Shown: in pieces, positions 48,367 through 64,000 of the stretch
How the letters are laid out: every line of letters starts with the position of its first letter
How positions within the stretch are numbered: the first letter of the stretch is position 1
From: Candidatus Undinarchaeota archaeon
GTDB taxonomy: Archaea; SpSt-1190; JASMDC01
Length of the DNA stretch: 64,000 nucleotides
Assembly (NCBI GenBank): GCA_964519305.1
Contig: CAZFHY010000009.1
Span: 1 to 64,000, forward strand
Direction of reading: 5' to 3'
Notes under the pieces: model-generated
Seen by the model: only the letters and a program-made list of their open reading frames with translations
Told to the model about the DNA's origin: nothing
The model's database searches: none
Program-made: the position numbers and the translations under genes

Positions 48367-48720
48367 ATGTACGACATCAGCGAACTTGAATCGATCGGGT
48401 ACGACTCAACCTGCGTGACCGATGAGGTCACGTACACTGACGACCTCTCCGGTGAGATGCTCGTCGGTAGTGCCATCGGTGGGGCGATATTGGGCTACGC
48501 GGTCGGTAACGGTGTTGGTCGCCTGGGTGCATGGTGGGCCGAGAAGACCGAAGCAGGGATCCAGAAAGCGGGACTTATCTCAGGTCTCAAGGGCGCCGGT
48601 ATCGGGGCCCTAGCGGCCGGTGGGACCTACGTTGTTGCCGATGCCCTGCACGGGAGTAGCAATGGTGGCGGGGAAGAAGAATCCGCCAATGACTGGACGC
48701 ACTACATGCGCGACGAATGA
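48367..48720 (+). CDS. Glycine-zipper small protein with acidic leader (family member 1)
   Basis: MYDISELESIGY...TDDLSG, then GSAIGGAILGYAVGNGVG and GAGIGALAAGG. Confidence 0.75.
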   Translation: MYDISELESIGYDSTCVTDEVTYTDDLSGEMLVGSAIGGAILGYAVGNGVGRLGAWWAEKTEAGIQKAGLISGLKGAGIGALAAGGTYVVADALHGSSNGGGEEESANDWTHYMRDE

Positions 48721-48777
48721 TGATATGGGAGGCTGCGAGCGAACAGCATAAAAGTTTCGCCCCCACCCTCATCATCC

Positions 48778-49350
48778 ATGGAGGAAATCCTTCAGGACCA
48801 TCAGTCACGCATCAACAAGAGCCGCCGCACGGTGGTAGTGTGCCACGGCGACTCTCTTACCTGGGGCTTCATGGTCAACCGGGAGGATTGCTATCCTGCA
48901 CGCCTTGAGCGCCACCTGGGCGGTGACTGGCAGGTCATCAACACGGGCCAGAACGGTGACACCGCAGAAGGCGGGCTCACCCGGCTCACTCGCGAAGCGC
49001 TCCCCAATAACCCGCGTCTCGTCATAATAGGGTTCGGCACCAACGACTTCTACGACGGCGTCCCATCCAAGCGAGTGTTCGCAGCGATGGACGAGATGGT
49101 CGGACGCGTACTAGCTGATGGCTCAGAGGTCATCCTATGGGGATTCCCGCACTCCCAGGCGTACGGTCAGGGGTACGAGTTCATCGCGCGCAAGCATAAG
49201 GTCCCGCTCCTCGACTATCTGCACGATGATATCTATGGCCAGCAGGGGAACGTGTTCCCCGACGGAGTACACCTCACGGCCAGCGGGTATGCTGCAGTAG
49301 AGGCACGGGTCCTGCCGGTGGTCAGACGGGTGCTGGGGCTCGACGCCTGA
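48778..49350 (+). CDS. SGNH/GDSL hydrolase (arylesterase-like)
   Basis: GDSLTWG, NTGQNG, GTND, DGVH blocks. Confidence 0.9.
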   Translation: MEEILQDHQSRINKSRRTVVVCHGDSLTWGFMVNREDCYPARLERHLGGDWQVINTGQNGDTAEGGLTRLTREALPNNPRLVIIGFGTNDFYDGVPSKRVFAAMDEMVGRVLADGSEVILWGFPHSQAYGQGYEFIARKHKVPLLDYLHDDIYGQQGNVFPDGVHLTASGYAAVEARVLPVVRRVLGLDA

Positions 49351-49351
49351 G

Positions 49352-50629
49352 CTACTCGATGTTGGCGTGACGCTTCTTCATTTTCTCAGAAGTCTCGCTG
49401 AGCGCCTGCTGGAGGTTGAACACGACGCCCTCAAGGAATATGAGCGAGAGGATCTCGAACAATGAGCCCATGGGCGTCAGCTCCTCGATCTGCGAGGTTA
49501 GCTGGCGGGCGATGTACGACACCTCCTTGGACTCGCGCACCCTGCCGTGTATGAGGAACACAATCTCGGCCAGCTTGCTTAGCGTGCCCTCGGGATTGGA
49601 GGTGATGGCGACGACCGTGGCACCGTTGCCGTGGGCTGCCTGGATGGGGGCGATAGTGAGGCTGGTCTCTCCCGAGCCGGAGATACCGACGATGACGTCG
49701 TCAGCTTCCACGGCGGGCATTGTCACTTCGCCGATCACATGGACACGAAGCCCCATGTGCATGAGCCGCATCCCGAAGGCGGCCCCCACCAGCCGTGAGC
49801 GTCCGGTCCCGCATACGTACACCTTGCGGTCTTTCTCGCGTGCGTCCTTGATCAGCTCGACGAACCGGTCGATCGCCTTTCCATCTAGCTCCTCGGCCAG
49901 CTTGCTCGCCTGGCTGGCATAGAAGCGCATGGTCATCCCCACGGGGACGCTGAAGGCGACGTGGCGCATCCTCGAGATTATGGTGCGTGCGGTTGTCTGG
50001 GGGTCTTTGGACTCGCGTAGCGCCCGGCCGATGACGAGTCGCTGGGCCCCGTTCATCAGCACCCGTTCAACGTGCTCCTCGTCCAGAGCACCCGCGGCGA
50101 TGACGGGGATGGTCAGCTCCCGTGATACCTGCTCGATCTCCTGGAAGGGATCGACGGTGCGCTTGGTATGGAAGCTCGTATGGACCACGACCGCGTCCAC
50201 GCCGAGCTGCTCGGCCTCTTTCGCCTTCTCAACGACGCTGCGCTCCTTGTCCACGTGCGAGAGGTCCATGTAGACCTTCACGCCCTCGTTCTTTGCGTAC
50301 TGGAGAATCGTCTTGACGATGTGTGGGGCATGGTGAGCTGTGATGATTATCGCATGAGCGCCGAACTCCCTGATTGCGCGGATCGTCTTGAACTCCTCGA
50401 TGTGCTTCAGGTCGGCCACGACCTCGAAGGGTTCCCCACGTTCTGCAAAGGTCCCATGAAGACGGCCGAGCACGTACCGCGTCCCGAGGGTCTGAAGGGT
50501 GTGGTGGTCCACCTCGAAGATACGGGCACCACCAGCCCACAGCTCGTCAGCGAGCGCGATCAGCGCGTCGATGTCGTAGCTGTCGTCCACCTTCAGATAG
50601 ACCTGGAGTTCCGGCTTCGTAGTCTCCAT
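49352..50629 (-). CDS. Fused HPS-like barrel and 6-phospho-3-hexuloisomerase (HPS-PHI)
   Basis: N-terminal OMPDC/HPS barrel (ADLK, IAAG, IGRA). C-terminal SIS PHI (GTGRSRLV, FGMRLMHMG, ISGSGET, PMGSLFE, RHANIE). Confidence 0.85.
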   Translation of the reverse strand: METTKPELQVYLKVDDSYDIDALIALADELWAGGARIFEVDHHTLQTLGTRYVLGRLHGTFAERGEPFEVVADLKHIEEFKTIRAIREFGAHAIIITAHHAPHIVKTILQYAKNEGVKVYMDLSHVDKERSVVEKAKEAEQLGVDAVVVHTSFHTKRTVDPFQEIEQVSRELTIPVIAAGALDEEHVERVLMNGAQRLVIGRALRESKDPQTTARTIISRMRHVAFSVPVGMTMRFYASQASKLAEELDGKAIDRFVELIKDAREKDRKVYVCGTGRSRLVGAAFGMRLMHMGLRVHVIGEVTMPAVEADDVIVGISGSGETSLTIAPIQAAHGNGATVVAITSNPEGTLSKLAEIVFLIHGRVRESKEVSYIARQLTSQIEELTPMGSLFEILSLIFLEGVVFNLQQALSETSEKMKKRHANIE

Positions 50630-50692
50630 GCTCCTCGCTTTTTGGAAGCTAGGGGAAGGGTTAAAAGACTAAGCCTCCCCCTCTGCCCTGCC

Positions 50693-51790
50693 ATGGAGAT
50701 GGAATCACCGGACCAGTCCCGACGCACGAGGTTGCTGGAGAACCGGGTCCACGAGCTAGAGGCGGCCATACAACGGTTCCTGGCCCCGCCAAACCTCGTG
50801 GCGACCATCTCCGAACGTCATCCCAACGGCATGGTCGTGGCACGCCTCTCGAACGGTCAGGAGGTGTTCACAACCGTGCGCCAGGGCCTTGAGGAGAAGG
50901 TGCTCCCCGGGGACCGCGTCCGTGTCGATCAGAAGAACTTCACGATCATCGACGTGCTCGGTGGCACCAGGGACTTCGATGTAGAGCGCTTCGTCGTCAT
51001 GGAGAAACCCGTGATATCCTGGGAGGACGTAGGTGGGCTTTCCGAAGAGATGCGGGAGCTAAAAGAGGTCGTGGAACTGCCGCTCACCAGTCCCGAACTG
51101 TTCCGCGAGGTGGGCATCACACCACCAAAGGGCGTGCTCCTTCACGGACCGCCCGGGACCGGTAAGACGCTGATGGCCAAGGCCGTTGCGAACGCTACCA
51201 ACGCCACGTTCATCGAAGTAGTGGGCTCGGAGCTCGCTCAGAAGTTCATCGGTGAGGGTGCAAAGCTCGTCAGGGACATATTCTCCCTGGCCCGCGACCG
51301 CTCTCCCACGCTCCTGTTCATCGACGAGGTGGACGCCATCGCTGCAAAGCGTATCGAGGTGGGCACATCCGGCGAGCGCGAGGTGCAGCGCACCTTCATG
51401 CAGCTGCTGGCAGAGATCGACGGTTTCCGCCCCTTGGGGGCCGTCAAGGTCGTCGCCGCGACCAACCGACCGGACATCCTCGATCCGGCCCTTGTGCGCC
51501 ACGGACGTCTCGACCGGCTCATCAAGGTACCGCTCCCCGACGAGAAGGGCAGGAAGGACATCGTCCAAATACACACACGTCCCATGAACACCGACGAGCT
51601 CGATGTCAAGAAGCTGGTCAAGTTCACCGACGAGATGTCGGGTGCCGACATCCACAACGTATGCACCGAGGCCGGCTACATGGCCATACGTGATAAACGT
51701 ACGAAAGTGACACAGAAGGACTTCGACGACGCCATCAAGAAGGTGCGTAAAGAGGACAAGGAAGCTGTCGTCTATTCGATGTTCAAGTAG
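50693..51790 (+). CDS. pan: Proteasome-activating nucleotidase
   Basis: Coiled coil plus PP-OB domain, GPPGTGKT, FIDEVDAI, GEREVQRT, ATNRPDILDPA. C-terminal MFK (HbYX-like). ATG at 50693 follows TTAAAA. Confidence 0.92.
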   Translation: MEMESPDQSRRTRLLENRVHELEAAIQRFLAPPNLVATISERHPNGMVVARLSNGQEVFTTVRQGLEEKVLPGDRVRVDQKNFTIIDVLGGTRDFDVERFVVMEKPVISWEDVGGLSEEMRELKEVVELPLTSPELFREVGITPPKGVLLHGPPGTGKTLMAKAVANATNATFIEVVGSELAQKFIGEGAKLVRDIFSLARDRSPTLLFIDEVDAIAAKRIEVGTSGEREVQRTFMQLLAEIDGFRPLGAVKVVAATNRPDILDPALVRHGRLDRLIKVPLPDEKGRKDIVQIHTRPMNTDELDVKKLVKFTDEMSGADIHNVCTEAGYMAIRDKRTKVTQKDFDDAIKKVRKEDKEAVVYSMFK

Positions 51791-51807
51791 AGCGGACGTG
51801 TCCGGGT

Positions 51808-52362
51808 TCAATCCCCTGACAGTGCATCGACTATCCCTGACGGTGAGCTCAATACACTGATGCCCATCATCGTATCCAGCTGCCGGGCGTTCGCTACGTC
51901 CACGGGGCGCATGGTGAGCGTTCCTGTCCGTCCCCCTGGCAGTGCCGTTATGACCTTACCTTCCTCGATGTCCGTGGGGAGCATGGTGATCGTTGCACCG
52001 CACTTGATGGCCTGTGCAACAAGATTGGGGACAAGGGTGTCCGCGATACCGCAGACGACCTTCGCCACGGTGTTCGCTGAGGCGGGAGCGACCAGAAAGG
52101 CCGCGTACACGCCCTTGTACAGATCACTGAGGAGCTTTGCCTGATTGGGCCCGTTCTCGATGACAGGTGCGGAGAACGCACCCTCGTCCAGACGATCCGT
52201 GAGCCCGTACATCCGAACCACCCGGGCGCCCTCGGCCGATAATACGGGCTGGACAATGGTCCCTTCGACGCTCACGTCCTCCATGGCCTCGAACGTAGCT
52301 TCGAGATGATGACCGGCGCCGGTGATCGCCCAGAGGATCCGTCGTGGATTGACAGGTGACAT
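51808..52362 (-). CDS. Archaeal flavoprotein (AfpA/DmrX-related, HFCD family)
   Basis: ILWAITGAG, PASANTVAKVVCGIADTLVPN, LPTD, MRPVDVAN. Confidence 0.82.
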   Translation of the reverse strand: MSPVNPRRILWAITGAGHHLEATFEAMEDVSVEGTIVQPVLSAEGARVVRMYGLTDRLDEGAFSAPVIENGPNQAKLLSDLYKGVYAAFLVAPASANTVAKVVCGIADTLVPNLVAQAIKCGATITMLPTDIEEGKVITALPGGRTGTLTMRPVDVANARQLDTMMGISVLSSPSGIVDALSGD

Positions 52363-52653
52363 TCAGATCATCCAGTCCTCGAGCACTTCGAGCACGAGGG
52401 CCTTCAGTTCACGAGGATCGTGCTCCCCTGGCTTCAATTCGTCCAAGGTTTCGGCCAGCGTGTGATCACCGATCACTTCCCGTACCCAGCTGGCCACGTC
52501 ATTGCAGTCGGGCCTGATGTGGAAAAGCAGCCCCTCTGGAGCCATTCCCAAGATGATCCAGTGCAGGTCCATGATGTCGCGGGCGACACCCTCTACACGA
52601 TCCTCGGACGACTTGACGATGAACTCGGATCCGTCGGGTGCGGAGGGCATCAT
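52363..52653 (-). CDS. DUF5752-like small protein
   Basis: M...LLFH....NDVASWVREVIGD..LAE.L motif. Confidence 0.6.
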   Translation of the reverse strand: MMPSAPDGSEFIVKSSEDRVEGVARDIMDLHWIILGMAPEGLLFHIRPDCNDVASWVREVIGDHTLAETLDELKPGEHDPRELKALVLEVLEDWMI

Positions 52654-52760
52654 CGGGGTTCCCTGCCACGTTTTCCGAGGTAAAGCTATTTATGTGGACT
52701 GGTCGGGCCGGGCCCTGTGTCTCCATAACCGTTATAATGCTCTGTGACGATAGGTAGTAT

Positions 52761-52907
52761 GTGGGCATCACCATCGACCCTGACGATCCACGATTCAAGA
52801 AGAAGCGTACACTTCGCCCCGAGGACGTAGAGGACATCGCCCTGGAGCGTCGCGAGGTCGACCTTCCTTCAACACAGCGTCCCCGTCGCAGGAAGGATGA
52901 GCGCTAG
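52761..52907 (+). CDS. Putative 48-aa basic small protein
   Basis: GTG start; MGITIDPDDPRFKKKRTLRPEDVEDIALERREVDLPSTQRPRRRKDER. TTATAA at ~52732 and AGGTAG before the start. Fills the intergenic gap. Confidence 0.55.
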   Translation: MGITIDPDDPRFKKKRTLRPEDVEDIALERREVDLPSTQRPRRRKDER

Positions 52908-52976
52908 CATCATCGCGCAGAGGGCGGGCGGGCGTCGCCGATTGATTTAAAACGCTCACCACTCATCCCGCTCCCG

Positions 52977-53462
52977 ATGGTCGCCGTACCACCCGCAGCA
53001 GGCCCCCTCATCGCCGCTGTAGGCTGCCTTGCCCTCGCTCCACGCGCTGCCAGGGGAGAGCGTGTCGAGGCAGGTGATGTGGCCTTCGGCGTGGTCGCGG
53101 GCCTGCTCCTGGCCGGCCTTACCGGGAATCTGACCACCGCTCTTGCGATGGCTATGTTCGGGGCATTGGCCTGGCCCGTGCTCCTTCTCCTGCTCGAGAT
53201 GGAGGACGCACGCATCATGCCTGCCCTTGGAGCGCTCCTGTTCGCCCCGATACCGGTTGACGGCCGTTCACTCCCGGCGTTCACTCTTGTAGCACCCTAT
53301 GCCCTGCTCGCCGCAATGACGCTGGACATGCTGGCCCAGCACGAGGTCTACGTCCCCGGCATCACCGTGGAGGTCGATGGCGGTCCCGACTTCCCGAACT
53401 TCGTCAACCTGCCTGCCGTGATCGCCATCGCGTGCCTGGCCTGCGCCCTTCTCGTCCGCTGA
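52977..53462 (+). CDS. Multi-pass membrane protein
   Basis: About 5 hydrophobic segments. TTTAAA about 25-30 nt upstream. AGDV is faintly reminiscent of A24 peptidases (not assigned). Confidence 0.6.
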   Translation: MVAVPPAAGPLIAAVGCLALAPRAARGERVEAGDVAFGVVAGLLLAGLTGNLTTALAMAMFGALAWPVLLLLLEMEDARIMPALGALLFAPIPVDGRSLPAFTLVAPYALLAAMTLDMLAQHEVYVPGITVEVDGGPDFPNFVNLPAVIAIACLACALLVR

Positions 53463-53548
53463 TCCCTGCCCCGACCGGCTGCCTTCCCCAAGGATAGGTA
53501 GAAAAAGGCCCGCGATGCGCATCGCCTCTACTGGACGGGTGACCGAGC

Positions 53549-54355
53549 ATGCTCTATGAGAGGATTGTTGATACAGAAAGGCTCGAAGCGGACCTCTACG
53601 GCCTGTGCGCTGTGGAGTCCCTCACGACCGGCCGTGGCGAGTACATGGCCGACGGCTTCGAGGACATCGGGTTCTCCGTGGAGCGACAGCAGATGATCAA
53701 CTATCCCCACGAAAATAAGATGATGCAGGACCTGTGGAACGACGAGAACGTCATCGCTGAGTACAAGGGCGATCCGGGCTCGGACAGGTACCTGTTGGTG
53801 ATGGGCCACCACGACAAGGTCCCCGAGGGCAAAGGGGCCAACGACAATGGATCGGGATCGGTCATGCTCCTGGAGCTGGCACGTCAGCTGAGCGAGCGTG
53901 GCGAGAAGGTGAACGTGCGGTTCGCGTCCTACGGTCTGGAGGAGATTGGTCTCGACGGGGCCTCTGTGTACGTCAAATCTCTATCGGACACCGAGCGCGA
54001 CAACATCATCGCGGCAGTCAATCTGGACTGTATCGGTGCCGGCTCGGAGCTCACCCTCACCATGAAGGACCGTCGGAGCGCGACCACCGACTGGGTGAAC
54101 GACGCCATCAAGCAGAAGGCGGACAGCATGGGCATCTCCTACTACGAGCGTGCGTCAATGCGCGGTTCGAGCGACCATGCGGTGACCGCCAACGCCGGCA
54201 TCCCCACTGCATCGCTCTGCCGACAGGAGGACGGAAAGATCCCCAACCTCCACTCGAAGGACGACGTGGTCGAGAACATCGACCTCGGACTGCTGACCGA
54301 GACCGGTGACCTAGTCTACCACGCGATGGTCGACATCTATCGGGATAAGAGGTAG
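53549..54355 (+). CDS. M28 family metallopeptidase
   Basis: GHHD, GANDNGSG, EEIGLDGA, NLDCIG, SDH, LHSKDD. Confidence 0.9.
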   Translation: MLYERIVDTERLEADLYGLCAVESLTTGRGEYMADGFEDIGFSVERQQMINYPHENKMMQDLWNDENVIAEYKGDPGSDRYLLVMGHHDKVPEGKGANDNGSGSVMLLELARQLSERGEKVNVRFASYGLEEIGLDGASVYVKSLSDTERDNIIAAVNLDCIGAGSELTLTMKDRRSATTDWVNDAIKQKADSMGISYYERASMRGSSDHAVTANAGIPTASLCRQEDGKIPNLHSKDDVVENIDLGLLTETGDLVYHAMVDIYRDKR

Positions 54356-54360
54356 ATCGA

Positions 54361-54681
54361 CTACTCGCCCTTTGCCTTCTTTACGAGCTCAGCGAGGTTA
54401 TCCTGCAGGCGCGCAGCCTCTGCCTCGGCCTTCGCCCTGACCTCTGCGGGAAGTTCTATCTGGGCCTCGAGGACGTCAGCGTACATCCGCGCGACCTTCG
54501 CCTTCTGCTCCCTTACGTCGACCTCGAGGACCACCTCGTGGTCACCGATGGACTTCTTGAGCAGGGTCGTTCCCTTGACCTTGGACGATACGGCCCAGCC
54601 GAGGTCCTTGAGCTTACCAAGGAGCGTGACCTCCTTAACCTCGCCTGAGACGAGTCCCCCCAACGAAAACGCGTACTTCAT
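54361..54681 (-). CDS. Hypothetical protein
   Basis: 106-aa ORF with coding-like composition. Confidence 0.65.
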   Translation of the reverse strand: MKYAFSLGGLVSGEVKEVTLLGKLKDLGWAVSSKVKGTTLLKKSIGDHEVVLEVDVREQKAKVARMYADVLEAQIELPAEVRAKAEAEAARLQDNLAELVKKAKGE

Positions 54682-54739
54682 GTGATCACTTGGAGAGTAA
54701 GGAGCGGCTCAGACTTTTGTTCCTTTCGATTAGGGGACC

Positions 54740-54765
54740 CGCCCCGCGGGAATGCCCGCGGGGCG
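54740..54765 (-). terminator. Perfect 11-bp GC hairpin just 3' of pnp
   Basis: CGCCCCGCGGG-AATG-CCCGCGGGGCG, 13 nt after the stop. Confidence 0.6.
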
Positions 54766-54778
54766 ATAGCTGTCTTCC

Positions 54779-57052
54779 CTAGTCTCTGCGGTCGCGGGAC
54801 CTGCGGTCGCGGTCCCTGCCGCCTCGGCGGTCACGGCCGCCACCACGGCGGTCGCGGTCACGGCCTCCACTGCGCCGGGGGCGTTCGGGCTCCACCCACC
54901 CGGGCGGCGGGGGGTGCAGGGCCTTCATGGAGACGTCGACCTTTCCGAAGGCTACCTTGGTCACGACGACCTTCACCGTGTCGCCGAGCTTGACCCGGTC
55001 CTCGATCTTGTCCACATGGCCGTACTCCAGCTCCGAGATGTGGAGCATCCCGTCCTTGCCGGGGATTAGGTTGACGAAGGCGCCGAAGGGCTTGATCGTG
55101 ACGACCTTGGCCTCCTCGAATATCTCGCCCACCTGCACCTCGCGAACGATGTCCCTGACGGCCTTCTCGGCCTTTGCGGCCATCTCGGCGTCGTTGGTGG
55201 TGATCATCACTGTACCGTCGTCCTCGATATCCATCTGGACGCCGGTCTCATCGGTGATGCTCCGGATCATCTTCCCGCCAGGGCCGATGACCGCGCCGAT
55301 CTTTTCCGGATCGATCTTTAAGGCAATGATACGCGGCGCGTACGCGGACAGCTCCTGCCTCGGCTCGGCGATCGCGCCCTGGATGACGTTAAGGATGAAG
55401 TTGTTCGCCATCCTTCCCTGGGTGATCGCTTCTCGGATGATGGGCATGGAGATACCACGGGTCTTTGTGTCCATCTGGACGGCTGTGACACCGTCACGGG
55501 TGGCGGTGATCTTGAAGTCCATACCGCCGTTCCCATCCTCCATGTCCTGGATGTCCGTGATGACCTTCCAGCGCTCACCGTCGGAAGCAAGCCCGATAGC
55601 TATCCCGGCCACGGGCTTCTTGATCGGGACACCCGCGTCCAGGAGGGCCAGCGTCGATGCGCATGTGGAGCCCATGGACGAGGAGCCGTTGGAGCTCATG
55701 ACCTCGGAGACCATCCTGATCGTGTAGGGGAACTCCTCCAGCGTGGGGAGCACCGGGCGAAGGGCTTTCTCCGCCAGCATGCCATGGCCCTGCTCTCGTC
55801 GACCGGCGCCGCGGAGCTTCTTTACCTCGCCCACGCTGAACGGTGGGAAGTTGTAGTGATGGAAGTACCGCTTCTTGATGTCGTCCTCCATCGACTCCAC
55901 GATGAGAGTGTCACCGGGGGCACCCAGGGTGACCACCGATAGAATGTGGGTCTCTCCTCGCTGGAAGAATCCCGTGCCATGGAGGCGAGGGAGCACGGCC
56001 ACGTCGGCCGCGAGGTGCCGGATATCGGTAATATTGCGGCCGTCGACGCGCTGTTCGCGGTCCAGGAGAGCCCGGGTGACCTGATCGTCGATGAACTCCT
56101 GGAAGCACTTCTTGAGGATGCCCTTGAGGTAGTCCTTGGCGGCCTCCTCGTCACGCTCCTGGTTGACGTACTCCCTGGCCATCTCGTTGACAACCAGTTC
56201 TTTCATCTCTCTCATGATCTCCTTGCGCTCGCCCTTTGAGCCGCGGGGCTGGTTGAAGACGTAGGTCTGGAGATGCGGGATCATGCGCTCCTTGAGCCGG
56301 TCAGCAACGACCTTCTCCTCGGGAGAGAGCTCGCCCGTGAACTTCAGGTCCTCCTTCTTCGCCTTGGGCTTACCGATCTGCTGGCGGACTTCCTCGATGA
56401 AGGCGCACAGCGGCCCGAGGGCACGCATGGCCTCTTCGAAGGCGCCGGCCATGACGTCGTCCGGGGCCTCGTTGCAGTCGCACTCCACCATGGTGATGCG
56501 GGAGCCGTCACCGGTGACCAGAAGGTCTACAATGGACTCCTCGAGCTCCTCCACGGTGGGGTTCACGATGTACCGACCGTCGATGTAACCGATGCGGACA
56601 CCGGCCACAGGTCCGTCGAATGGGATGCTGGAGAGGTGGAGGGCCATGCAGCCGCCGATGATGGCAGGGACGTCGGGCTTGTTCGCCTCGTCGAAGGTGA
56701 GGGGCATGCAGATGACTTGGACCTCGTTGCGCATGTTCTGGTCGAAGAGCGGGCGGATACCGCGGTCGATGGAGCGTCCGGTCAGCACAGCGTCGAGGGA
56801 AGGTCTGCCTTCCCGCTTGGTGAACCGGGAGCCTTTGATGCGCCCGCACGCGTAGTATCGCTCTTCGTATTCGACCATGAGAGGGAAGAAGTCCATCCCT
56901 TCGCGAGCGGAGGGGGACATGTTCGCTGAGCAGAGCACTACGGTCTCGCCTAGTTTTATGGTGAGTGCGGCATCGGATTGAGGTCCGTACCTACCTGTCT
57001 CGATCGTGAGCGTCTTTCCTGCTACATCGCAGGTGAATTGTCGAATGTTCAT
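54779..57052 (-). CDS. pnp: Bacterial-type polyribonucleotide nucleotidyltransferase (PNPase)
   Basis: DFFPL.V.YEERYYA.G.I, REGRPS, RVDGR, FQRGET, HYNFPPFSVGE, GRREQGHG, SNGSSSM, MDFK, KH domain (IGAVIGPGGK), S1 domain (FGAFV..DGMLHISEL). Confidence 0.95.
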   Translation of the reverse strand: MNIRQFTCDVAGKTLTIETGRYGPQSDAALTIKLGETVVLCSANMSPSAREGMDFFPLMVEYEERYYACGRIKGSRFTKREGRPSLDAVLTGRSIDRGIRPLFDQNMRNEVQVICMPLTFDEANKPDVPAIIGGCMALHLSSIPFDGPVAGVRIGYIDGRYIVNPTVEELEESIVDLLVTGDGSRITMVECDCNEAPDDVMAGAFEEAMRALGPLCAFIEEVRQQIGKPKAKKEDLKFTGELSPEEKVVADRLKERMIPHLQTYVFNQPRGSKGERKEIMREMKELVVNEMAREYVNQERDEEAAKDYLKGILKKCFQEFIDDQVTRALLDREQRVDGRNITDIRHLAADVAVLPRLHGTGFFQRGETHILSVVTLGAPGDTLIVESMEDDIKKRYFHHYNFPPFSVGEVKKLRGAGRREQGHGMLAEKALRPVLPTLEEFPYTIRMVSEVMSSNGSSSMGSTCASTLALLDAGVPIKKPVAGIAIGLASDGERWKVITDIQDMEDGNGGMDFKITATRDGVTAVQMDTKTRGISMPIIREAITQGRMANNFILNVIQGAIAEPRQELSAYAPRIIALKIDPEKIGAVIGPGGKMIRSITDETGVQMDIEDDGTVMITTNDAEMAAKAEKAVRDIVREVQVGEIFEEAKVVTIKPFGAFVNLIPGKDGMLHISELEYGHVDKIEDRVKLGDTVKVVVTKVAFGKVDVSMKALHPPPPGWVEPERPRRSGGRDRDRRGGGRDRRGGRDRDRRSRDRRD

Positions 57053-57076
57053 GTGGCATTCACTAAAGGGGTATCC

Positions 57077-57084
57077 TTTTAAAT
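57077..57084 (-). promoter_or_regulatory. Archaeal TATA box of pnp
   Basis: ATTTAAAA on the minus strand, 24 nt upstream of the ATG (near-leaderless spacing). Confidence 0.6.
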
Positions 57085-57183
57085 GAGCCGGTCAGGCCTC
57101 CGCAGTGGGCCGCGGTATCACGGTTCTTGCCATGGGAAAGGTATATATAGCGGTCGTGGGGCCGCGCCGACAAGGTGACGCTG

Positions 57184-57720
57184 ATGGACATATCCATTGA
57201 CTATCTGGAGCGCGAGCAGATGAAGGTCGGACCGAGCGTCGGTATGGGTTTCGGGCCCACATATGGCATCCCACCATCAGGCCCCTTCCACACCAGCGAT
57301 GTCGTGTTCGACAACAACTACGTCGCAAGGCAGACCGAGGAGTTCGAGCCCGCCATCGAAGCGTTGGCCGAGCAGTACGCTGCCAAGGACGGTTGTGAGG
57401 TCATGGCCTACCACGACCACAGCCATACGACGTGGTACAATACCATCGATAAAGAGATGGAACACGTCCACTTCAAGGGCGAGATGGACGACTTCAAGGG
57501 CTTCATCGAGGACGCGAAGGCGGCCGGGTACGGCACGCCCGAGAACGTCCGGGTGAACGCCTCAGTGGTCGACTGGCTCACCCACCCGGTCCAGACCTGG
57601 CGCACGAAGCAGGCTGTATCCTCCTACATGGAGGAGGTCGGCTCCGAGCTCAAGGTCACAGAGACCGAAGAGGACGTAGGCAACCGACACATCTACAAGC
57701 GCGAGATTACGTTCGAATGA
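57184..57720 (+). CDS. Hypothetical protein
   Basis: TATATATA box, GGTGA SD, then ATG at 57184. Confidence 0.72.
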   Translation: MDISIDYLEREQMKVGPSVGMGFGPTYGIPPSGPFHTSDVVFDNNYVARQTEEFEPAIEALAEQYAAKDGCEVMAYHDHSHTTWYNTIDKEMEHVHFKGEMDDFKGFIEDAKAAGYGTPENVRVNASVVDWLTHPVQTWRTKQAVSSYMEEVGSELKVTETEEDVGNRHIYKREITFE

Positions 57721-57734
57721 ACTGACCTCAATCC

Positions 57735-57777
57735 ACGGGGGCGGTCGTTACCGCGGCCGTCCCCGTTTCCTTTTATC
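57735..57777 (+). terminator. GC hairpin plus T tract
   Basis: ACGGGGGCGGTCG-TTAC-CGCGGCCGTCCCCGT-TTCCTTTTATC. Confidence 0.55.
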
Positions 57778-57855
57778 ATGCACTGCGGGAAAAGGCTGTG
57801 TATGAATCTCACACTACCGGTGAGGTTGCTCGTTCCAGATAGGGTGGTCCGCTCG

Positions 57856-58263
57856 TTACCGGACAATACGTGAGTTCTCGGGAGCCATGACGAGCCAGTC
57901 CTCGTCGATGCCCGCCATATCGGACCCGCTGGTGGAGCAGTGCGTCTTGAGGCGGTTGATCGAGCGCTTGAGCTCGGACATGTCCTTCTCGCGCAGTTGC
58001 TTGATCTTGACGAGCATGATGGTGTTGCCCTTCCGGAAGTGCGTGAGGATGGTCTCTGTATCTGCGAAGTCCTCGAGCTGGGACGTACGGATCTGGAGAG
58101 CCGAGTCGCCCGAGTCCACGTTCTTGAACTTGATCTCGGGGATATCCGAGGTCTTTGAAGCATGAGCATTATGGATATGATGGTACTCGTCGAGGTGTGT
58201 GGGTCGTTTGTGCTTGAAGCGCTCCAACAGCTTCTCGCCCATTCTGTAGAACCGTTCGACCAT
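57856..58263 (-). CDS. sepF: Archaeal cell division protein SepF
   Basis: L.DFAD...IL...RKGNTIMLVKI..L.......LKR.I..LK......G.D.AGI.EDWLVMAP. Confidence 0.82.
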   Translation of the reverse strand: MVERFYRMGEKLLERFKHKRPTHLDEYHHIHNAHASKTSDIPEIKFKNVDSGDSALQIRTSQLEDFADTETILTHFRKGNTIMLVKIKQLREKDMSELKRSINRLKTHCSTSGSDMAGIDEDWLVMAPENSRIVR

Positions 58264-58314
58264 AATCTATCCCAAGATGCTGGAGCGGTCTTCCTTTAAA
58301 TTCCTTCCGCCGAG

Positions 58315-58572
58315 CTATCTTTGGAGCGTCTCCAGAGTACTGGCGATGTTCCAGATATCGGTCCTTGTGTGCTCTGGCAGGTTCGGATCATTGGAGATAT
58401 CGTCCAACCGGTTGATTGCCTCGTTCACGCGAACGGCCATTGCTCTGTCCTTGCCTACAAGGATGCTCTTTACGTCCTCGGCAGTCTTGCGTATGTTCCG
58501 CGGCACCGATCGATCATCGAGTATCTCTTCGAGTATCTCGCAAACCTGAGAAAGGATGTTTTCAGCGTCCAT
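58315..58572 (-). CDS. UPF0147 family protein
   Basis: ILDDRSVPRNIRKTA and LDDISNDPNLPEHTRTDIWNIAS.LE. Confidence 0.9.
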   Translation of the reverse strand: MDAENILSQVCEILEEILDDRSVPRNIRKTAEDVKSILVGKDRAMAVRVNEAINRLDDISNDPNLPEHTRTDIWNIASTLETLQR

Positions 58573-59560
58573 GTCCCTCATCTCCTAGCCTTTCCCTCAG
58601 GACCCTCAGGAGGCCCTTGATACCCTCGTCCATTTCCACCACGCCATTGACGCTGGCAGCGGCATCGTGACCACCACCACTCCCTTGGATGATGGCCTCA
58701 ATGTTCGCGAGAAGGTCCTTGTAGACGTGAATCCCAGTGCTTTTTATAAAGGTTTTTCTCGCCCGCGCTGTTATCCGGAACCCCTTCTTCTTCTTGGCAC
58801 CGACGAAGGCTATGTCGGCACCGAACCTGATGAGAGCATTGGCCACATCGGCCTCGAAGGAGTTCACCCTCGAGACGGCCACTATCCACGGACCGGTCAA
58901 AGTGAGCTCGGCCCGTTGGGCTCCCTTGAGGATCGCGATCCTCGAGGAGCGATCAGGTTCCAGGTGGATGGCATCGAGCACCTCCTGGTAATCCACGTCG
59001 GTCGTGGCCAGGAGCTTGGCCATGTCTCGGAAGGTGCTGGCCTGTGCCCGTCTGAATGACATTGTGTCCGCGACCATGCCTGCGATCATCGCTGCGGCCG
59101 CACGCTTCGTGGGTTCTACGTCCGCTGCCTCGAAGAGGCGGAACACGAGCTCGCATGCAGACGGAGAGGTGGCGTCCGTCAGGGAAGCATGATAATCGCA
59201 TGGTCCCGAATAGGGATGATGGTCCACAACGACAGGCCGCTTCCATGGGACCAGGGGCGCGAACTGGTCGGGGTTCTGGACGTCCACGAGAACGGGAAGC
59301 CCTCCCGGGTTCGGAGGCCTGACCTCGAACTCGGCGTCCAGGTAGTCGATGAGCTTACGCGCGGCAACGCTCGCATGCGAACCCGATCCGATCCTCGACG
59401 GGATATCGAGCTTTTTCAACAGTTCCTGGAGCGCTATGCAGGCTCCTGCGGCATCGAGGTCGGCGTTCTGATGAGTGATGAGGAAAGCGCCCTCCCTCGC
59501 AGCGGTGAGGGCCTCAAGGACGTTTTGAACGTCCTCCCCGGTACCTTTTTTCTCAGGCAA
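58562..59560 (-). CDS. DHH/DHHA1 phosphoesterase (NrnA-like)
   Basis: THQNADLDA, VVVDHH, GMVADT, GGGHDAAA. Follows prefoldin beta, as is common in archaea. Confidence 0.87.
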   Translation of the reverse strand: MPEKKGTGEDVQNVLEALTAAREGAFLITHQNADLDAAGACIALQELLKKLDIPSRIGSGSHASVAARKLIDYLDAEFEVRPPNPGGLPVLVDVQNPDQFAPLVPWKRPVVVDHHPYSGPCDYHASLTDATSPSACELVFRLFEAADVEPTKRAAAAMIAGMVADTMSFRRAQASTFRDMAKLLATTDVDYQEVLDAIHLEPDRSSRIAILKGAQRAELTLTGPWIVAVSRVNSFEADVANALIRFGADIAFVGAKKKKGFRITARARKTFIKSTGIHVYKDLLANIEAIIQGSGGGHDAAASVNGVVEMDEGIKGLLRVLRERLGDEGHGR

Positions 59561-59906
59561 TGGGGCCGGCCGGTCCCTGGAGGAGCTTGGTCACCTTGTC
59601 AGAGAGGTCGGTCACCTTCTCGTTGACCTTCTCCTCCTGACGGGTGAGAGTCTTGATTCGAAGCTCCAGGGTCTCACGCCGGTCGTCCAGTTCCTTTGTC
59701 ACGTCCTTGGCCTTCATCTTGGCAAGGATGGGGCCCACTGCCTTGTACACGTCCTCGTCCTTGACCCCTTCCAGGGATTCAAGGGCGGACATGACATCGG
59801 TCAGCTGGGTCTCGATCTGCTGTTTCTGGATGAGAATTGTCTGTGCCTGCTGCTGATACTGTTGCAGCTGGAGCACCATGTGCTGTGCTTGTGGGGATAT
59901 GTCCAT
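59553..59906 (-). CDS. pfdB: Prefoldin beta subunit
   Basis: Gln-rich coiled coil, VYKAVGPIL, ETLELRIKTL.RQE. Confidence 0.93.
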   Translation of the reverse strand: MDISPQAQHMVLQLQQYQQQAQTILIQKQQIETQLTDVMSALESLEGVKDEDVYKAVGPILAKMKAKDVTKELDDRRETLELRIKTLTRQEEKVNEKVTDLSDKVTKLLQGPAGPIA

Positions 59907-59907
59907 G

Positions 59908-60123
59908 TCAACTCACCTCGTCAACGCTGAGGATTATCTTAAGCCACCTGCAGGTGGCGTTCATTGCGGCACGAAGTGCAGTCAGATCGTCGGCCTCGAT
60001 CAATATGTCGTCACCATCGAACCGAGTTCGTGCTCGCCGCTGCTCGTTAGTTCCTAGAGGCTGCGTCAGCACCGTGCGGACGAGCTCCGGTCGTTCCGTG
60101 GTCAGGCGGGCTGTGAAGGGGAT
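59908..60123 (-). CDS. pcc1: KEOPS complex subunit Pcc1 (missed by ORF track)
   Basis: ILIEADDLTALRAAMNATCRWLKII between rpoP and pfdB. No ATG/GTG at the expected N-terminus; ATC at 60123 proposed. Confidence 0.78.
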   Translation of the reverse strand: MPFTARLTTERPELVRTVLTQPLGTNEQRRARTRFDGDDILIEADDLTALRAAMNATCRWLKIILSVDEVS

Positions 60124-60135
60124 AACAGGAGCCCC

Positions 60136-60273
60136 CTACTGGCACAGCACCGACTTGATGACCCGAGGTCGAGCCTTGGCCAGGATCTTATAGCCGCAGA
60201 ACGGGCATCTGATCCGGCGCATCTCCGAGGTCGAAGGGTCGATCGTACGCTTGCACTTGAGACAGACGAACAC
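60136..60273 (-). CDS. rpoP: DNA-directed RNA polymerase subunit P (Rpo12)
   Basis: C..C...IRCPFCGYKILAKAR. GTG start after GGAGGTGA. Confidence 0.9.
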   Translation of the reverse strand: MFVCLKCKRTIDPSTSEMRRIRCPFCGYKILAKARPRVIKSVLCQ

Positions 60274-60278
60274 CCGGT

Positions 60279-60503
60279 TCACCTCCGCCTCGTGGATGGA
60301 GCGTAAGCGCCTCCAGCGATCTTGACGCCACACTTGGTACAGGACCAGAGTCCTGCGTTGGCGCGCTTCAGCTTCGGAGCCTTGCACTGGGGGCAGACAT
60401 GGAACGCGCGGGAACTGTTCTCTACCTTCGCCACCATCCTGCGGACCCTCTTACCGTAGCGGCAGCCGAAACGGCCGGCGCTTCCTACTTTCTTTGTTGC
60501 CAT
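60279..60503 (-). CDS. rpl37ae: 50S ribosomal protein L37Ae (eL43)
   Basis: TKKVGSAGRFG.RYG, CPQC...CTKCG..IAGGAY.P. Confidence 0.95.
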   Translation of the reverse strand: MATKKVGSAGRFGCRYGKRVRRMVAKVENSSRAFHVCPQCKAPKLKRANAGLWSCTKCGVKIAGGAYAPSTRRR

Positions 60504-60530
60504 GATGATCGCCTGTTGTCGTGATGTGAA

Positions 60531-60608
60531 TGGTGGGGCCGCCGAGATTTGAACTCAGGTCACTACCACCCCAAGGTAGGAGGATAGACCAAGCTACCCT
60601 ACGGCCCC
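60531..60608 (-). tRNA. tRNA-Pro(GGG), CCA encoded, no intron
   Basis: GGGGCCGTAGGGTAGCTTGGTCTATCCTCCTACC-TTGGGGT-GGTAGTGACCTGAGTTCAAATCTCGGCGGCCCCACCA folds as a cloverleaf. Confidence 0.95.
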
Positions 60609-60642
60609 TTGATCACGTCTTGTGTGTACCCTCCACCTCCTA

Positions 60643-60840
60643 TTAGGCCCTCTTGTACCGCGCGATCTCGCTCACGAGATCGATCTGCGAGAGGAGCATG
60701 CGCCTACAGCAGTATCGCATGACGTTCAGGTCGTTGAGCACCGTTTCGGGGTGCTCACCCGCGGCTATGCGGCTCTGGTACGTATCGAAGTGCTCAGAGA
60801 CGGGTGCACCACAGGTAAAGCATCGTACGGGGATAATCAT
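60643..60840 (-). CDS. rpoN: DNA-directed RNA polymerase subunit N (Rpo10)
   Basis: MIIPVRCFTCG...RYCCRRMLLS. Confidence 0.96.
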   Translation of the reverse strand: MIIPVRCFTCGAPVSEHFDTYQSRIAAGEHPETVLNDLNVMRYCCRRMLLSQIDLVSEIARYKRA

Positions 60841-60847
60841 TGTTCGC

Positions 60848-61249
60848 TCACCGGTATGACTTCTGTCGCCTCGACCGGGGCTTGGACCGGTTGGGCTTGG
60901 ACTTCTCGGTGCGCCGGGGATCGGCCACCAGGAGATGGCGGTCGTAGGTGAGGAAGAGGCGCTTGAGCTTCTCGTCCTCGGTGAACTCCACCAATCCCTT
61001 CGCGATGGCGAGCCGCACGGCCTCTGACTGTGCGATCCGGCCGCCGCCGCTGACGTTAACACGGATGTTGACGCTCTTTACGGCCTTTCCCGCCAGGAGC
61101 AGGGGCTCACGGATGCGTTCCCGGGCAAAGGCGGGCGTGAACAGTTCCAGGGGGACGCTGTTGATCTTGATGACGCCCTTTCCCTTGGAGAGGGTGGCCC
61201 TCGCCGTGGATCTCTTCCGCTTGCCGCTCGTATGGATGATCTTGCTCAT
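60848..61249 (-). CDS. rps9: 30S ribosomal protein S9
   Basis: SGKRK, V.GGG..Q.EAVRLAIAKGL, YDRHLLVADPRR, QKSYR. Confidence 0.96.
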   Translation of the reverse strand: MSKIIHTSGKRKRSTARATLSKGKGVIKINSVPLELFTPAFARERIREPLLLAGKAVKSVNIRVNVSGGGRIAQSEAVRLAIAKGLVEFTEDEKLKRLFLTYDRHLLVADPRRTEKSKPNRSKPRSRRQKSYR

Positions 61250-61677
61250 GACTCCCACCTGTCACGTGATATACCGAGCTCCCGGGAGATGTCCCCCAGG
61301 CGCATGTACTTTCCGGTGTTTGAGGAGGCGATATTGATATCAGAGATGGTCTGGCTCTCAATGTCCTTGAGGGCCTGGGGCTTGCCGATGAACACCTTGA
61401 GGCGGTGGAAAGCATCGCGTCCGCGCTTGCGCTTGTAGGGCAGCATGCCGCGGACCGCCCTACGAAGGATGCGGTCAGGCATACGGGGGAAGTGGGGTCC
61501 GTGATAGGGATGACCCCTTGACCGGCGCTGGCGGTAGCGACTGAGTATGTGATCGCGGCTGCCTGTGATGATGGCCGACTCAGCGTTTATGATGCTGATC
61601 TTCTCGCCCTCCAGGAGCTTTTTTGCGACTTGGGCGGCCAACCGCCCCATGATGAGGTCCTTGGCATCGATGATCAT
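61246..61677 (-). CDS. rpl13: 50S ribosomal protein L13
   Basis: IIDAKDLIMGRLAA, RRAVRGMLPYK. Confidence 0.96.
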   Translation of the reverse strand: MIIDAKDLIMGRLAAQVAKKLLEGEKISIINAESAIITGSRDHILSRYRQRRSRGHPYHGPHFPRMPDRILRRAVRGMLPYKRKRGRDAFHRLKVFIGKPQALKDIESQTISDINIASSNTGKYMRLGDISRELGISRDRWES

Positions 61678-61680
61678 AGT

Positions 61681-62034
61681 CTACACCATCACCCGCACGT
61701 CGGTGCCCTTGGGGTGCTTCTTGACCATCTCCTCGATGGAGAGGGTCTTGCCCCCGGCCTTTGTGATCTTGTCCCGGGCCTTCTCGGAGAAGGTGAGAGC
61801 AGCGATGGTGAGCTTGTGGTTGAGCTCGCCGGTACTGAGCACCTTTCCCGGAACAACGATGGTCTCGCCCTTGTTGGTATGGCGGTTGAGCCGGGAGAGG
61901 TTGATGACCGGTCTTCCCCGGGTCGGCTTAGTAAGCCGCTCGGAGAGGTCCTGCCAGATAGGGGCGTCTCCCTTGGTCCCAGCCCGCTTAAGGGCGATTA
62001 TGAGCCTTCTGAGGTTATCGTCCGTCTTTTTCAT
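61681..62034 (-). CDS. rpl18e: 50S ribosomal protein L18e
   Basis: INLSRLNR, VVPGKVLSTG, FSEKARDKI..AGG. Confidence 0.95.
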   Translation of the reverse strand: MKKTDDNLRRLIIALKRAGTKGDAPIWQDLSERLTKPTRGRPVINLSRLNRHTNKGETIVVPGKVLSTGELNHKLTIAALTFSEKARDKITKAGGKTLSIEEMVKKHPKGTDVRVMV

Positions 62035-62234
62035 GGTCTCGACCCGTGAACTTGTGAAATCGCCGGTCCGAGGCGAGCATTGCCTCCCGGCTTGCCTTGC
62101 GGATTCAAAGACTAATGGTTTTATAGGTTGCGGTTAAGCGAGCCCAGTCTCCCGGGGGACGGAAGGCCAGTCCGGTCGTCGGAAGACTTCGTTCGCCATA
62201 ACCTTTTTATCGCTCCCTAGCTGAACAATGATCA

Positions 62235-62315
62235 CCCGGATGATGAGCTCGCGTTCCCGATGCCCCGGACCCGGCGGGTCCGGTCGCTGTGACGAGGATT
62301 TTGAGTTCTGACGGG
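62235..62315 (+). ncRNA. Box C/D guide sRNA, predicted target tRNA C34
   Basis: Terminal stem CCCG/CGGG. C box ATGATGA (62240-46), D' CCGA (62257-60), internal hairpin, C' GTGACGA (62289-95), D CTGA (62308-11). TTTTTAT box ~25 nt upstream. Confidence 0.8.
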
Positions 62316-62361
62316 CGCTCCTCCGCTGCCTTTTTAAATGATATACCGGCGAGTCATTTGT

Positions 62362-62985
62362 ATGATCATCGCCACCGACCTCGAGGGGATCCTCATGCCC
62401 GAGATCTGGGAGCATATCGCCATAGAGACCGGTATCGAAGCATTGAAGGTCACAACGCGGGACGAGCCCGACTTCGTGAAGCTCATGGAGCATCGCGTCA
62501 GCGTTCTTCGGGAGCATGATATCAAGCTACCTGACCTCGTCGCCATGGCGCATCAGGTGGAGCCGTTCCTCGCCACCAGAGCGTTCCTCAAATGGGCCCG
62601 GACCAAGGGCCAGATCATGATCATCTCCGATACGTTCCAGGAGTTCGCCGACCATTTCATCGACGTGGTCGGAGCATACAACCTCTTTGCCAACAGGTTC
62701 CAGTTCGCTCCCGATGGCACCATCCTCGGATGCAACCTCCGGATCCGTGGCAAGAAGGAGCGCGTTACTCAGTCACTGAAGGATATCGGTTTCTTCGTAG
62801 TGGGCATCGGGGACTCGTTCAACGACATCTCGCTGCTCAAGAGCTGCTCGTTCCCCATCCTGTACCGGACCCCCAGCGAGGTGACCAAGCAGTTCCCTAA
62901 CGCGCCGCGGGTCACGAATCTCGATGACCTCAAGAGCACCATCGAGGCCCTTCCGGACGAACCGAACGGGAACGGTTCCGCCTGA
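62362..62985 (+). CDS. thrH: Phosphoserine phosphatase/homoserine phosphotransferase
   Basis: DLEGIL.PEIW, TTRDEPDF..LM..R, ISDTF.EF, GDSFND. Confidence 0.9.
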   Translation: MIIATDLEGILMPEIWEHIAIETGIEALKVTTRDEPDFVKLMEHRVSVLREHDIKLPDLVAMAHQVEPFLATRAFLKWARTKGQIMIISDTFQEFADHFIDVVGAYNLFANRFQFAPDGTILGCNLRIRGKKERVTQSLKDIGFFVVGIGDSFNDISLLKSCSFPILYRTPSEVTKQFPNAPRVTNLDDLKSTIEALPDEPNGNGSA

Positions 62986-62989
62986 ATCT

Positions 62990-63373
62990 TCATAGGGAAA
63001 AAGGATACTCATCGGAATCACACTCGGAGTCCTCGCTCTCGACCGGTTCGTCAGGCGTGGTCGTGTACGCACCGATGAACCCTCCGACGAGATACCCAGT
63101 CAAGGAGAACGTAGGGCCAAGGACCGCAAGACCTGCGGCTGTCCCCGTGATGTCCATGCCCAGATGGACGATGGGACCCGCATCGTCGAGGTACTCGTGG
63201 TTGAGGTAATCAGTCCAAGCGTACCCGGTGAACGCGGCCAGACCAAGGCCGATATAGCCACCGATGCGAGCGCCGCCGAACCAGCCCACGCCGCCCAGGT
63301 CGTCGCTCACTTCATAACCATCAGCAGACCGAGTAGTATCATGACCATCGGTCTCCAGATCCATGTCGAACAT
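62990..63373 (-). CDS. Glycine-zipper small protein with acidic leader (family member 2)
   Basis: MFDMDLETDGH...SDDLGG, then GGARIGGYIGLGLAAF and GYLVGGFIGAY. Acidic tail. Confidence 0.72.
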   Translation of the reverse strand: MFDMDLETDGHDTTRSADGYEVSDDLGGVGWFGGARIGGYIGLGLAAFTGYAWTDYLNHEYLDDAGPIVHLGMDITGTAAGLAVLGPTFSLTGYLVGGFIGAYTTTPDEPVESEDSECDSDEYPFSL

Positions 63374-63500
63374 CATCATCACCGATTTTAGAGAGCCCTA
63401 ACTATTCGGGACGCCTAATATACCTTGACTTTGGGGGTGATAAGTAATGTCACACTGCGTGAAGTGACGATCGATACCTCTAACGCATGTTGTTATCGCA

Positions 63501-63836
63501 CTATTCCTCGGTAGCGATGAGGTATCCGGCGGTAGCACCGGCGGCAGTGCAGCCTACATAGAGCGCGATGTCAGCAGCGTCCATCGGGGGAGGCGCATAG
63601 CGCTCCTGGATCGCAGGGATCTCTCGCAGGAGCTGGGGGATTATGCCATCGCCGGGAGGGCCCGTGGGGCCCCGGGGTTCGAACGTATTGTGTACGAGCT
63701 CGGCCAGTCCGAGACCTAACAGCCCACCGGCGAGAGTACCGGTCACGGAACCTGCGTCCAGGTCATCGGTAATACCATACGTGGGAGATGCGTCGCTCTC
63801 ACTGTATCCTTCTGTCATGAGGTCCATGTCGTACAT
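63501..63836 (-). CDS. Glycine-zipper small protein with acidic leader (family member 3)
   Basis: MYDMDLMTEGY...TDDLDA, then GTLAGGLLGLGL and GCTAAGATAGYL. GAGGTG SD precedes ATG 63836. Confidence 0.72.
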   Translation of the reverse strand: MYDMDLMTEGYSESDASPTYGITDDLDAGSVTGTLAGGLLGLGLAELVHNTFEPRGPTGPPGDGIIPQLLREIPAIQERYAPPPMDAADIALYVGCTAAGATAGYLIATEE

Positions 63837-64000
63837 CGCGTCCACCTCTAGCTTCCTACAGGCGTTCGGGCATGCAGTCCCTTCTTATACCTGCTCTTGG
63901 GAGCCGTCCGTCACACCGCTTCGCACGGTCCGGGCCCGCCACGGGGCAACCCTTTTAACCCTTGCCTCCCCAGTCCCGGACAGGGATCACCATGATGCCG

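Follow-up and report, generated by a model that had tools for sequence, protein, structure and literature searches.

Background

The ESPR of autotransporters and the YSIRK-G/S motif are conserved N-terminal extensions of bacterial signal peptides, basic or neutral in character, which affect the timing or site of secretion and are not required for translocation as such. Long signal peptides of the KxYKxGKxW type identify substrates of the accessory-Sec (SecA2) system, where Gly-containing hydrophobic regions (h-regions) steer the route, and double-glycine leaders, together with ATP-binding cassette (ABC) exporters bearing a C39 peptidase, serve bacteriocins, microcins and many-core families such as the prochlorosins. 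Each of the bacterial signal-peptide add-ons has proved to indicate a separate route or site of secretion; little has been mapped of protein sorting in archaea beyond Sec, Tat and class III signals and those of the C-terminal sortase type. Here we describe a family of acidic N-terminal leaders (the tag, in what follows) from a stretch of 64,000 nucleotides, termed the window, that comprises positions 1 to 64,000 of contig C9 (CAZFHY010000009.1) in the genome of a Candidatus Undinarchaeota archaeon (GCA_964519305.1; G000, 3.63 Mb in 42 contigs), and compare it with a congener genome (G001). An initial annotation of the window had noticed three open reading frames (ORFs), P0001 to P0003, with a common acidic leader, and had taken them for candidate precursors of membrane-active peptides resembling double-glycine bacteriocins.

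An acidic leader shared by unrelated proteins

The three ORFs, beginning at 48367 on the forward strand and at 63373 and 63836 on the reverse strand, are present with leader strings exactly as first quoted. A hidden Markov model (HMM) built from these three leaders alone recovered 21 ORFs at E<0.01 from the 51,117 six-frame ORFs of G000 and none from the same ORFs when reversed, so that chance does not account for the similarity. On iteration the model converged on 33 tagged ORFs, the window trio included. Thus, the expectation that a leader HMM would uncover further members was borne out, and the original description of the family as dispersed was an understatement, as the window holds only three of the 33. 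In all 33 the motif lies within a few residues of the start codon (29 ATG, three GTG and one TTG), and by eye a TATA-like, AT-rich box and a purine stretch of the GGTG type can be made out upstream of most.

These 33 proteins, together with 27 from G001, constitute the set of 60 members from which the anatomy of the leader was derived. It is 25-31 residues long, typically about 27, and conforms to the consensus M-Y-[DE]-[ILMV]-[DE]-L-[ED]-[TS]-x-G-Y-[GA]-x-[AS]-x-A-A-[DE]-G-Y-x-x-[TA]-[DE]-D-L, with one D found in all 60 members, the first L in 59, the second Y in 51 and the last L in 54. On average it carries 6.95 D/E and 0.52 K/R, and 38 members have no K/R in it at all. The terminal motif proposed at the outset, DDL-x-[GA], stands only in part: its D-L is near invariant (D in 60 and L in 54), and the two columns that follow are occupied by S24/D12/N11 and then by G19/A15/S8, so that the second is often neither G nor A. 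Behind the leader comes a short linker, with K/R just before an uncharged stretch in 40 of the 60 members. This stretch is found in every member, begins no more than 12 residues past the D-L, and has a mean length of 20.8 residues (range 11-31) with 22% Gly and 22% Ala. Hence, the tag is strictly N-terminal and is always followed by a stretch resembling the h-region of a signal peptide.

The leader itself is predicted to be intrinsically disordered. AlphaFold2, given the 60-sequence alignment, left it without secondary structure (predicted local distance difference test, pLDDT, 53-61) and placed a helix at residues 31-57, and in a full-length model of a tagged protein with caspase-fold cargo (mean pLDDT 79) residues 1-40 scored below 50. 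In 21 ortholog pairs between the two genomes (synonymous divergence, dS, about 0.45-0.53) the ratio of nonsynonymous to synonymous substitution (NG86 dN/dS) was 0.18 in the leader, 0.11 in the h-region and 0.14 over the remainder; judged from these ratios, the tag is under purifying selection. All tagged proteins are acidic overall, with net charges of -6 to -87, although this is no salt-in halophile: the median isoelectric point of 600 crude gene calls is 5.6.

In none of the 33 members does a Pfam or NCBIfam model reach into residues 1-30 (E<=0.01), and a profile search of the PDB with the leader-family alignment (A2) gave no match at E<=1. Models of the ESPR, YSIRK, KxYKxGKxW and prepilin/class III motifs, which these libraries presumably contain, likewise did not match residues 1-30 of the 33 members at E<=0.01, nor the window trio at E<=1. 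A literature search, with supplements and subscription-only papers outside its scope, found no description of the motif or of acidic signal-peptide extensions in archaea. The tag family is real and undescribed, in keeping with the part of the initial annotation that saw in it a conserved, modular and export-related leader of a new kind.

A signal-peptide-like stretch behind the tag

Contrary to the initial view that these proteins lack a Sec or Tat signal, their first hydrophobic helix occupies the position of a signal-peptide h-region. In three of the 60 members the hydrophobic stretch ends in a lipobox (LAGC in one, LSGC in another, and in the third LSGC with TGSS after it), and the h-regions of ordinary G000 lipoproteins, which by eye look Leu-rich, end in the same kind of lipobox. 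When the cargo protein C8_136306 was aligned with its ordinary lipoprotein homologues (alignment A3), the lipobox Cys fell in one column in six of nine rows, and the acidic leader showed up as some 23 extra residues inserted behind the initiator region. The place of the helix, the lipoboxes and this alignment together point to a Sec-type signal. LspA and Lgt are missing, the usual situation in archaea. A published account (PMC12462473) reports proteins with a lipobox to be prevalent among DPANN and Euryarchaeota.

Relatives that lack the tag give a second view of the same region. Homologues of the tagged protein C8_136306 (G000 C8:136306-137229) in other archaea, at 41-49% identity and with one labelled Candidatus Woesearchaeota by one source, have at their N-terminus a basic n-region, which is short, and then an h-region and a lipobox. 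Within G000, a leaderless paralogue of the cargo of the C3 pair (C25 15969-16886) begins with a basic n-region, an h-region and ASGC, and hydrophobic N-terminal signals of the ordinary kind are also found on the giant TSP3-repeat proteins to which the TSP3 cargo is related. That these leaderless relatives carry export signals implies that three cargo classes are exported and that the stretch behind the tag takes the place of their h-region. Hence, for at least three classes of cargo these comparisons show the tag in place of, or ahead of, the basic n-region that ordinarily heads an exported protein. In the C14 pair, A-T-A with E-P after it is no more than suggestive of signal peptidase cleavage. 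A twin-arginine (Tat) motif is not a general feature, as R-R before the h-region was found solely in C10_128663 and its ortholog, two of the 60.

The cargo

Past residue 30 the 33 proteins of G000 fall into eight BLAST-linked groups and 12 singletons, among them enzymes and repeat proteins, and this attachment to unrelated cargo establishes that the tag is modular, as the suggestion of leaders fused to other cargo had anticipated. The tagged proteins range from 63 to 563 residues, 12 of them exceeding 200, and 11 contain Pfam domains: Transglut_core in four or five members, TSP3_bac Ca-binding repeats and a LOR/scramblase-like domain, with weaker matches to DUF4347 and to tape-measure-like repeats. 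Foldseek returned caspases as the top matches for the DUF4347-like cargo of C8_136306 (E 7.5e-6, TM 0.29-0.37), and an H-G and a C are invariant in all nine aligned sequences of its family. This cargo is predicted to fold as a caspase-like domain and belongs to a predicted lipoprotein family that other small-genome archaea also have. Transglut_core, TSP3_bac and the caspase fold are cargo types typical of surface proteins.

Three tandem tagged proteins of 518, 445 and 563 residues (G000 C20:55858-61074) consist of helical repeats of roughly 40 residues, with weak Pfam matches of the tape-measure and minor-tail type; in G001 four genes of this kind stand side by side. A search of PHROGs gave two weak matches, both in a single member of this trio, and PADLOC recognized none of the 33 tagged proteins. 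A clostripain-like C11 peptidase (G000 C10:116451-117932) adjoins the tagged C10_117923; the N-terminus of this peptidase, not matched by the HMM, has by eye the look of a degenerate tag, with K-K and a Gly/Ala-rich stretch behind it.

Distribution and turnover

The tag profile gave 34 matches in G000, 28 in G001 and none in any of the phylum's 15 remaining species representatives (0.6-1.2 Mb), and among 401 archaeal genomes sampled from 139 families it again matched only G000 and G001. Of 1.84 billion protein representatives, 36 matched at E<=1e-3. Two of these are unrelated repeat proteins and were discarded; the remaining 34 are identical to G000 or G001 members at >=98% (14), 78-93% (14) or 36-49% (six, with P0007 and P0039 in this group). 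Homologues of the transglutaminase cargo at 56% and 46% identity have a degenerate tag with the D-L kept, and the D-L and an aromatic residue survive in tagged homologues at 45-56% identity. This retention in distant homologues shows the tag to be older than the G000 and G001 species. The DNA carrying tagged genes comes from marine or seawater metagenomes, and a metagenome scan with the transglutaminase-cargo alignment returned only 92%-identical relatives and one unrelated locus. Across these collections the tag is confined to one poorly sampled marine lineage. Within it, the two genomes share 23 reciprocal-best pairs, and 10 of the 33 G000 members (P0001 and P0002 among them) and four of the 27 in G001 lack a counterpart.

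Interpretation

In each genome the tag marks some 30 proteins of the membrane or the extracytoplasmic space, the three window proteins included, and it is probably a sorting tag. We lean, with somewhat more confidence than doubt, toward its being a lineage-specific, acidic, disordered extension placed before Sec-type signal peptides or anchors, a motif that sorts or routes precursors from the cytoplasmic side. The tag would then remain in the cytoplasm (N-in) while the Gly/Ala-rich stretch engages SecYE, and as a linear recognition motif it would sort, time or route the tagged subset of precursors; a few of these would be cleaved at a lipobox, some by signal peptidase, and others might persist as type II anchors. 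Several observations weigh against such a role. The net charge of -5 to -9 over the whole N-terminus before the hydrophobic stretch, reached despite the K/R of the linker, defies the positive-inside rule for an N-in signal, and 20 of the 60 members have no K/R there at all. In P0001 the loop between the first helix and the second hydrophobic segment is K/R-rich (R52, K60, K67, K75), which favors an N-out orientation for that protein. One cargo has a match to LOR/scramblase-like domains, usually found in the cytoplasm, a recognizable processing site is seen in just three of 60 members, and no partner gene recurs around 20 tagged loci.

The charge distribution could be accommodated if the acidic tail were itself translocated and exposed at the surface, for instance as a Ca2+- or envelope-binding anchor, with the cargo left inside. 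Acidic N-terminal tails without K/R can indeed be translocated, as in small phage coat proteins, and the basic loop of P0001 and the LOR/scramblase-like cargo would suit this arrangement. We nevertheless regard it as distinctly improbable, because only N-in is compatible with a lipobox at the C-terminal end of the stretch, because two-thirds of the members have K/R on the N-side, and because export signals are present on leaderless relatives of the TSP3, caspase-fold and C3-pair cargo. The leader might instead be a cytoplasmic tail motif of resident membrane proteins, active in docking, clustering or turnover after insertion through, for example, cytoskeletal, vesicle or protease partners, and without any part in export. 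Its character as a disordered acidic linear motif under purifying selection similar to that on the mature parts, and the many small members with two hydrophobic segments and no clear cleavage site, are consistent with this. We consider it unlikely, given that leaderless homologues have ordinary cleavable signals at the same position and that lipobox members would lose the tag together with the signal peptide; in the latter it could act only before or during export.

The initial proposal cast the small members as precursors from which membrane-active peptides, archaeocins in effect, would be secreted, with the leader cut off after DDL-x-G by a dedicated exporter. A single conserved leader in front of many divergent Gly-rich cores, and the high gene turnover that leaves 10 of the 33 members without an ortholog, would fit such a system; moreover, P0001 without its leader and h-region would be reduced to an amphipathic, K-rich stretch with a Gly-rich segment behind it, and P0003 has an ABC ATPase gene at a distance of 1.9 kb. 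We find the proposal very improbable. The leader ends in no Gly-Gly site, and Peptidase_C39 (PF03412) is encoded in neither of the two genomes (the control was positive in 7 of 14) and in none of 179 ORFs neighboring 20 tagged loci. The ABC gene near P0003 lacks a C39 domain, ABC genes occur within 5 kb at only two of the 20 loci, and neither a transporter nor any other partner gene recurs there, most neighbors being housekeeping genes. The same leader stands on enzymes of 300-560 residues and on lipoproteins, the 12 proteins of more than 200 residues having enzyme or repeat domains; all members are strongly acidic overall; and apart from the empty PADLOC search, no match to a Pfam glycine-zipper or bacteriocin family was obtained.

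A more specific form of the sorting idea, which we hold to be quite improbable, is that the tag is an address label for post-translational export through acquired bacterial-type SecA motors. In it, the weakly hydrophobic, Gly/Ala-rich tagged signals would be directed to SecA and not to the co-translational archaeal pathway. Each genome has one SecY; bacterial-type SecA is encoded by two genes in G000, 63% identical to each other, and by one in G001. The SecA_SW domain was found in two of the 401 archaeal genomes sampled, the same two as the tag, and the SecA gene on C10 is preceded, on its own strand, by a CpeT-like gene and two tagged genes (intervals of 72, 4 and 43 nt). On the other side, the co-occurrence is weak evidence because one lineage alone supplies it, and G001 does not preserve the adjacency. 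A literature search found no account of SecA in Undinarchaeota. The contigs of G000 carry archaeal ribosomal, RNA polymerase, PAN, prefoldin, eRF1 and primase genes. The gene between SecA and the two tagged genes (G000 C10:83395-84018) belongs to the CpeT/CpcT family (DUF1001), known from cyanobacterial phycobilin lyases.

If true, the SecA proposal would give the first SecA-dependent archaeal secretion pathway with a signal of its own; unless that link holds, the narrow distribution of the tag limits its general importance. As a sorting signal, the tag would offer a simple sequence handle on a subset of the surface proteome, peptidases and Ca-binding repeat proteins included, and a testable case of an acidic N-terminus that defies the positive-inside rule on exported proteins.

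The window genes and their genome

The coordinates of the three window genes and of the SecA genes are collected in Table 1. The initial annotation ascribed two GxxxG-rich hydrophobic helices to each window protein, and hydropathy segments are indeed found in all three, at residues 29-47 and 76-94 of P0001, 30-48 and 90-108 of P0003, and 70-88 of P0002, which has in addition a weaker Gly-rich segment at about 37-54, where AlphaFold2 places a helix (31-57); the GxxxG motifs number seven in P0001, six in P0002 and four in P0003. In pairwise BLASTP, P0001 and P0002 match at E=3e-4, P0002 and P0003 at E=2e-5 (leader only) and P0001 and P0003 at E=0.19. None of the three matches a Pfam family at E<=1, glycine-zipper and bacteriocin families included, and a glycine-zipper cluster was an ESM Atlas lead at 0.79 only, under the lead threshold of 0.9.

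Table 1. Tagged genes of the window with their segments (window positions), and SecA genes of the two genomes (contig positions)
Feature	Position	Strand	Remarks
P0001, tagged family member, 117 aa	48367..48720	+	stop included; leader HMM match
P0001 acidic leader, aa 1-27	48367..48447	+	terminates in D-D-L
P0001 short linker and first uncharged Gly/Ala-rich stretch, aa 28-51	48448..48519	+	h-region position
P0001 second hydrophobic segment, aa 76-94	48592..48648	+	hydropathy
P0002, tagged family member, 127 aa	62990..63373	-	stop included
P0002 alternative in-frame starts	63376, 63379 (ATG), 63382 (GTG)	-	
P0002 acidic leader, aa 1-26	63296..63373	-	
P0002 linker (aa 27-36, last residue R36) and first uncharged stretch (aa 37-54)	63212..63295	-	
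P0002 later hydrophobic segment, aa 70-88	63110..63166	-	hydropathy
P0003, tagged family member, 111 aa	63501..63836	-	stop included; tandem with P0002
P0003 acidic leader, aa 1-26	63759..63836	-	
P0003 first uncharged Gly-rich stretch, aa 28-45	63702..63755	-	
P0003 C-terminal hydrophobic segment, aa 90-108	63513..63569	-	hydropathy
SecA, G000	C10:80857-83322	-	full-length; SecA_DEAD, PP_bind, P-loop and SW domains
SecA second copy, G000	C36:3068-5542	+	full-length; same domains
SecA, G001	C41 (L055:7282-9750)		

P0001 has a homologue in a different organism, P0039, with 48% identity over 82 residues, and as a query it found no match in G001. P0002 is 51% identical to P0007 over 89 residues in the HMMER representative search; in G001 it matches at the level of the leader only, in a set of 5.8 billion proteins (candidates of 69-223 residues) it matched only itself, and in the ESM Atlas nothing reached 0.9. 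P0003 and its G001 ortholog are 88% identical in the leader, 80% in the h-region and 82% in the rest, and a scan with the single protein returned the congener only, with an 83% identical relative at locus L053. No RNA data set was listed as carrying window positions 62338-63999. A shared operator, CCCTAA..TTAGGG, near the P0001 and P0002 promoters was considered and dropped, as the shuffled genome gave more matches (14) than the real one (two).

The lineage is an odd one, being uncultivated and marine, having a large genome in a small-genome phylum and carrying both SecA and polynucleotide phosphorylase. G000 and G001 measure 3.63 Mb and 3.8 Mb at about 60% GC (completeness 99.8%, contamination 4.3%), against 0.6-1.2 Mb in the phylum's other 15 species representatives. 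In the window, a polynucleotide phosphorylase of 757 residues (54782-57052, reverse strand; two RNase_PH domains, KH and S1), an enzyme normally bacterial or organellar, is encoded amid archaeal housekeeping genes. A SepF-like gene at 57859-58263 (reverse strand), together with an FtsZ gene at G000 C8:14231-15301, indicates FtsZ-based division.

Comparison with described systems

The tag resembles the ESPR and YSIRK-G/S extensions in placing some 20-30 conserved residues before an otherwise normal n/h/c signal on unrelated cargo, and departs from them in being strongly acidic, archaeal, restricted to one lineage and without a match in Pfam or NCBIfam. With the KxYKxGKxW signals it has in common a long N-terminal extension and a Gly-rich, weakly hydrophobic core, and G000 has two SecA paralogues; there is, however, no sequence similarity, no second SecY and no serine-rich glycoprotein among the cargo. 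As in double-glycine families, one conserved leader is combined with many divergent downstream sequences scattered over the genome, but the GG site and the C39 peptidase are lacking, and folded domains of up to 563 residues stand behind a hydrophobic stretch. As for the archaeal lipobox signals (PMC12462473), three tagged members end like them in [L][AS]G-C, with the Cys aligned to that of ordinary lipoproteins, whereas in the tagged proteins an acidic tag of about 27 residues precedes or replaces the basic n-region and most members have no lipobox. On these comparisons, the family is best filed as an acidic, archaeal form of the conserved signal-peptide extensions and not as a bacteriocin system.

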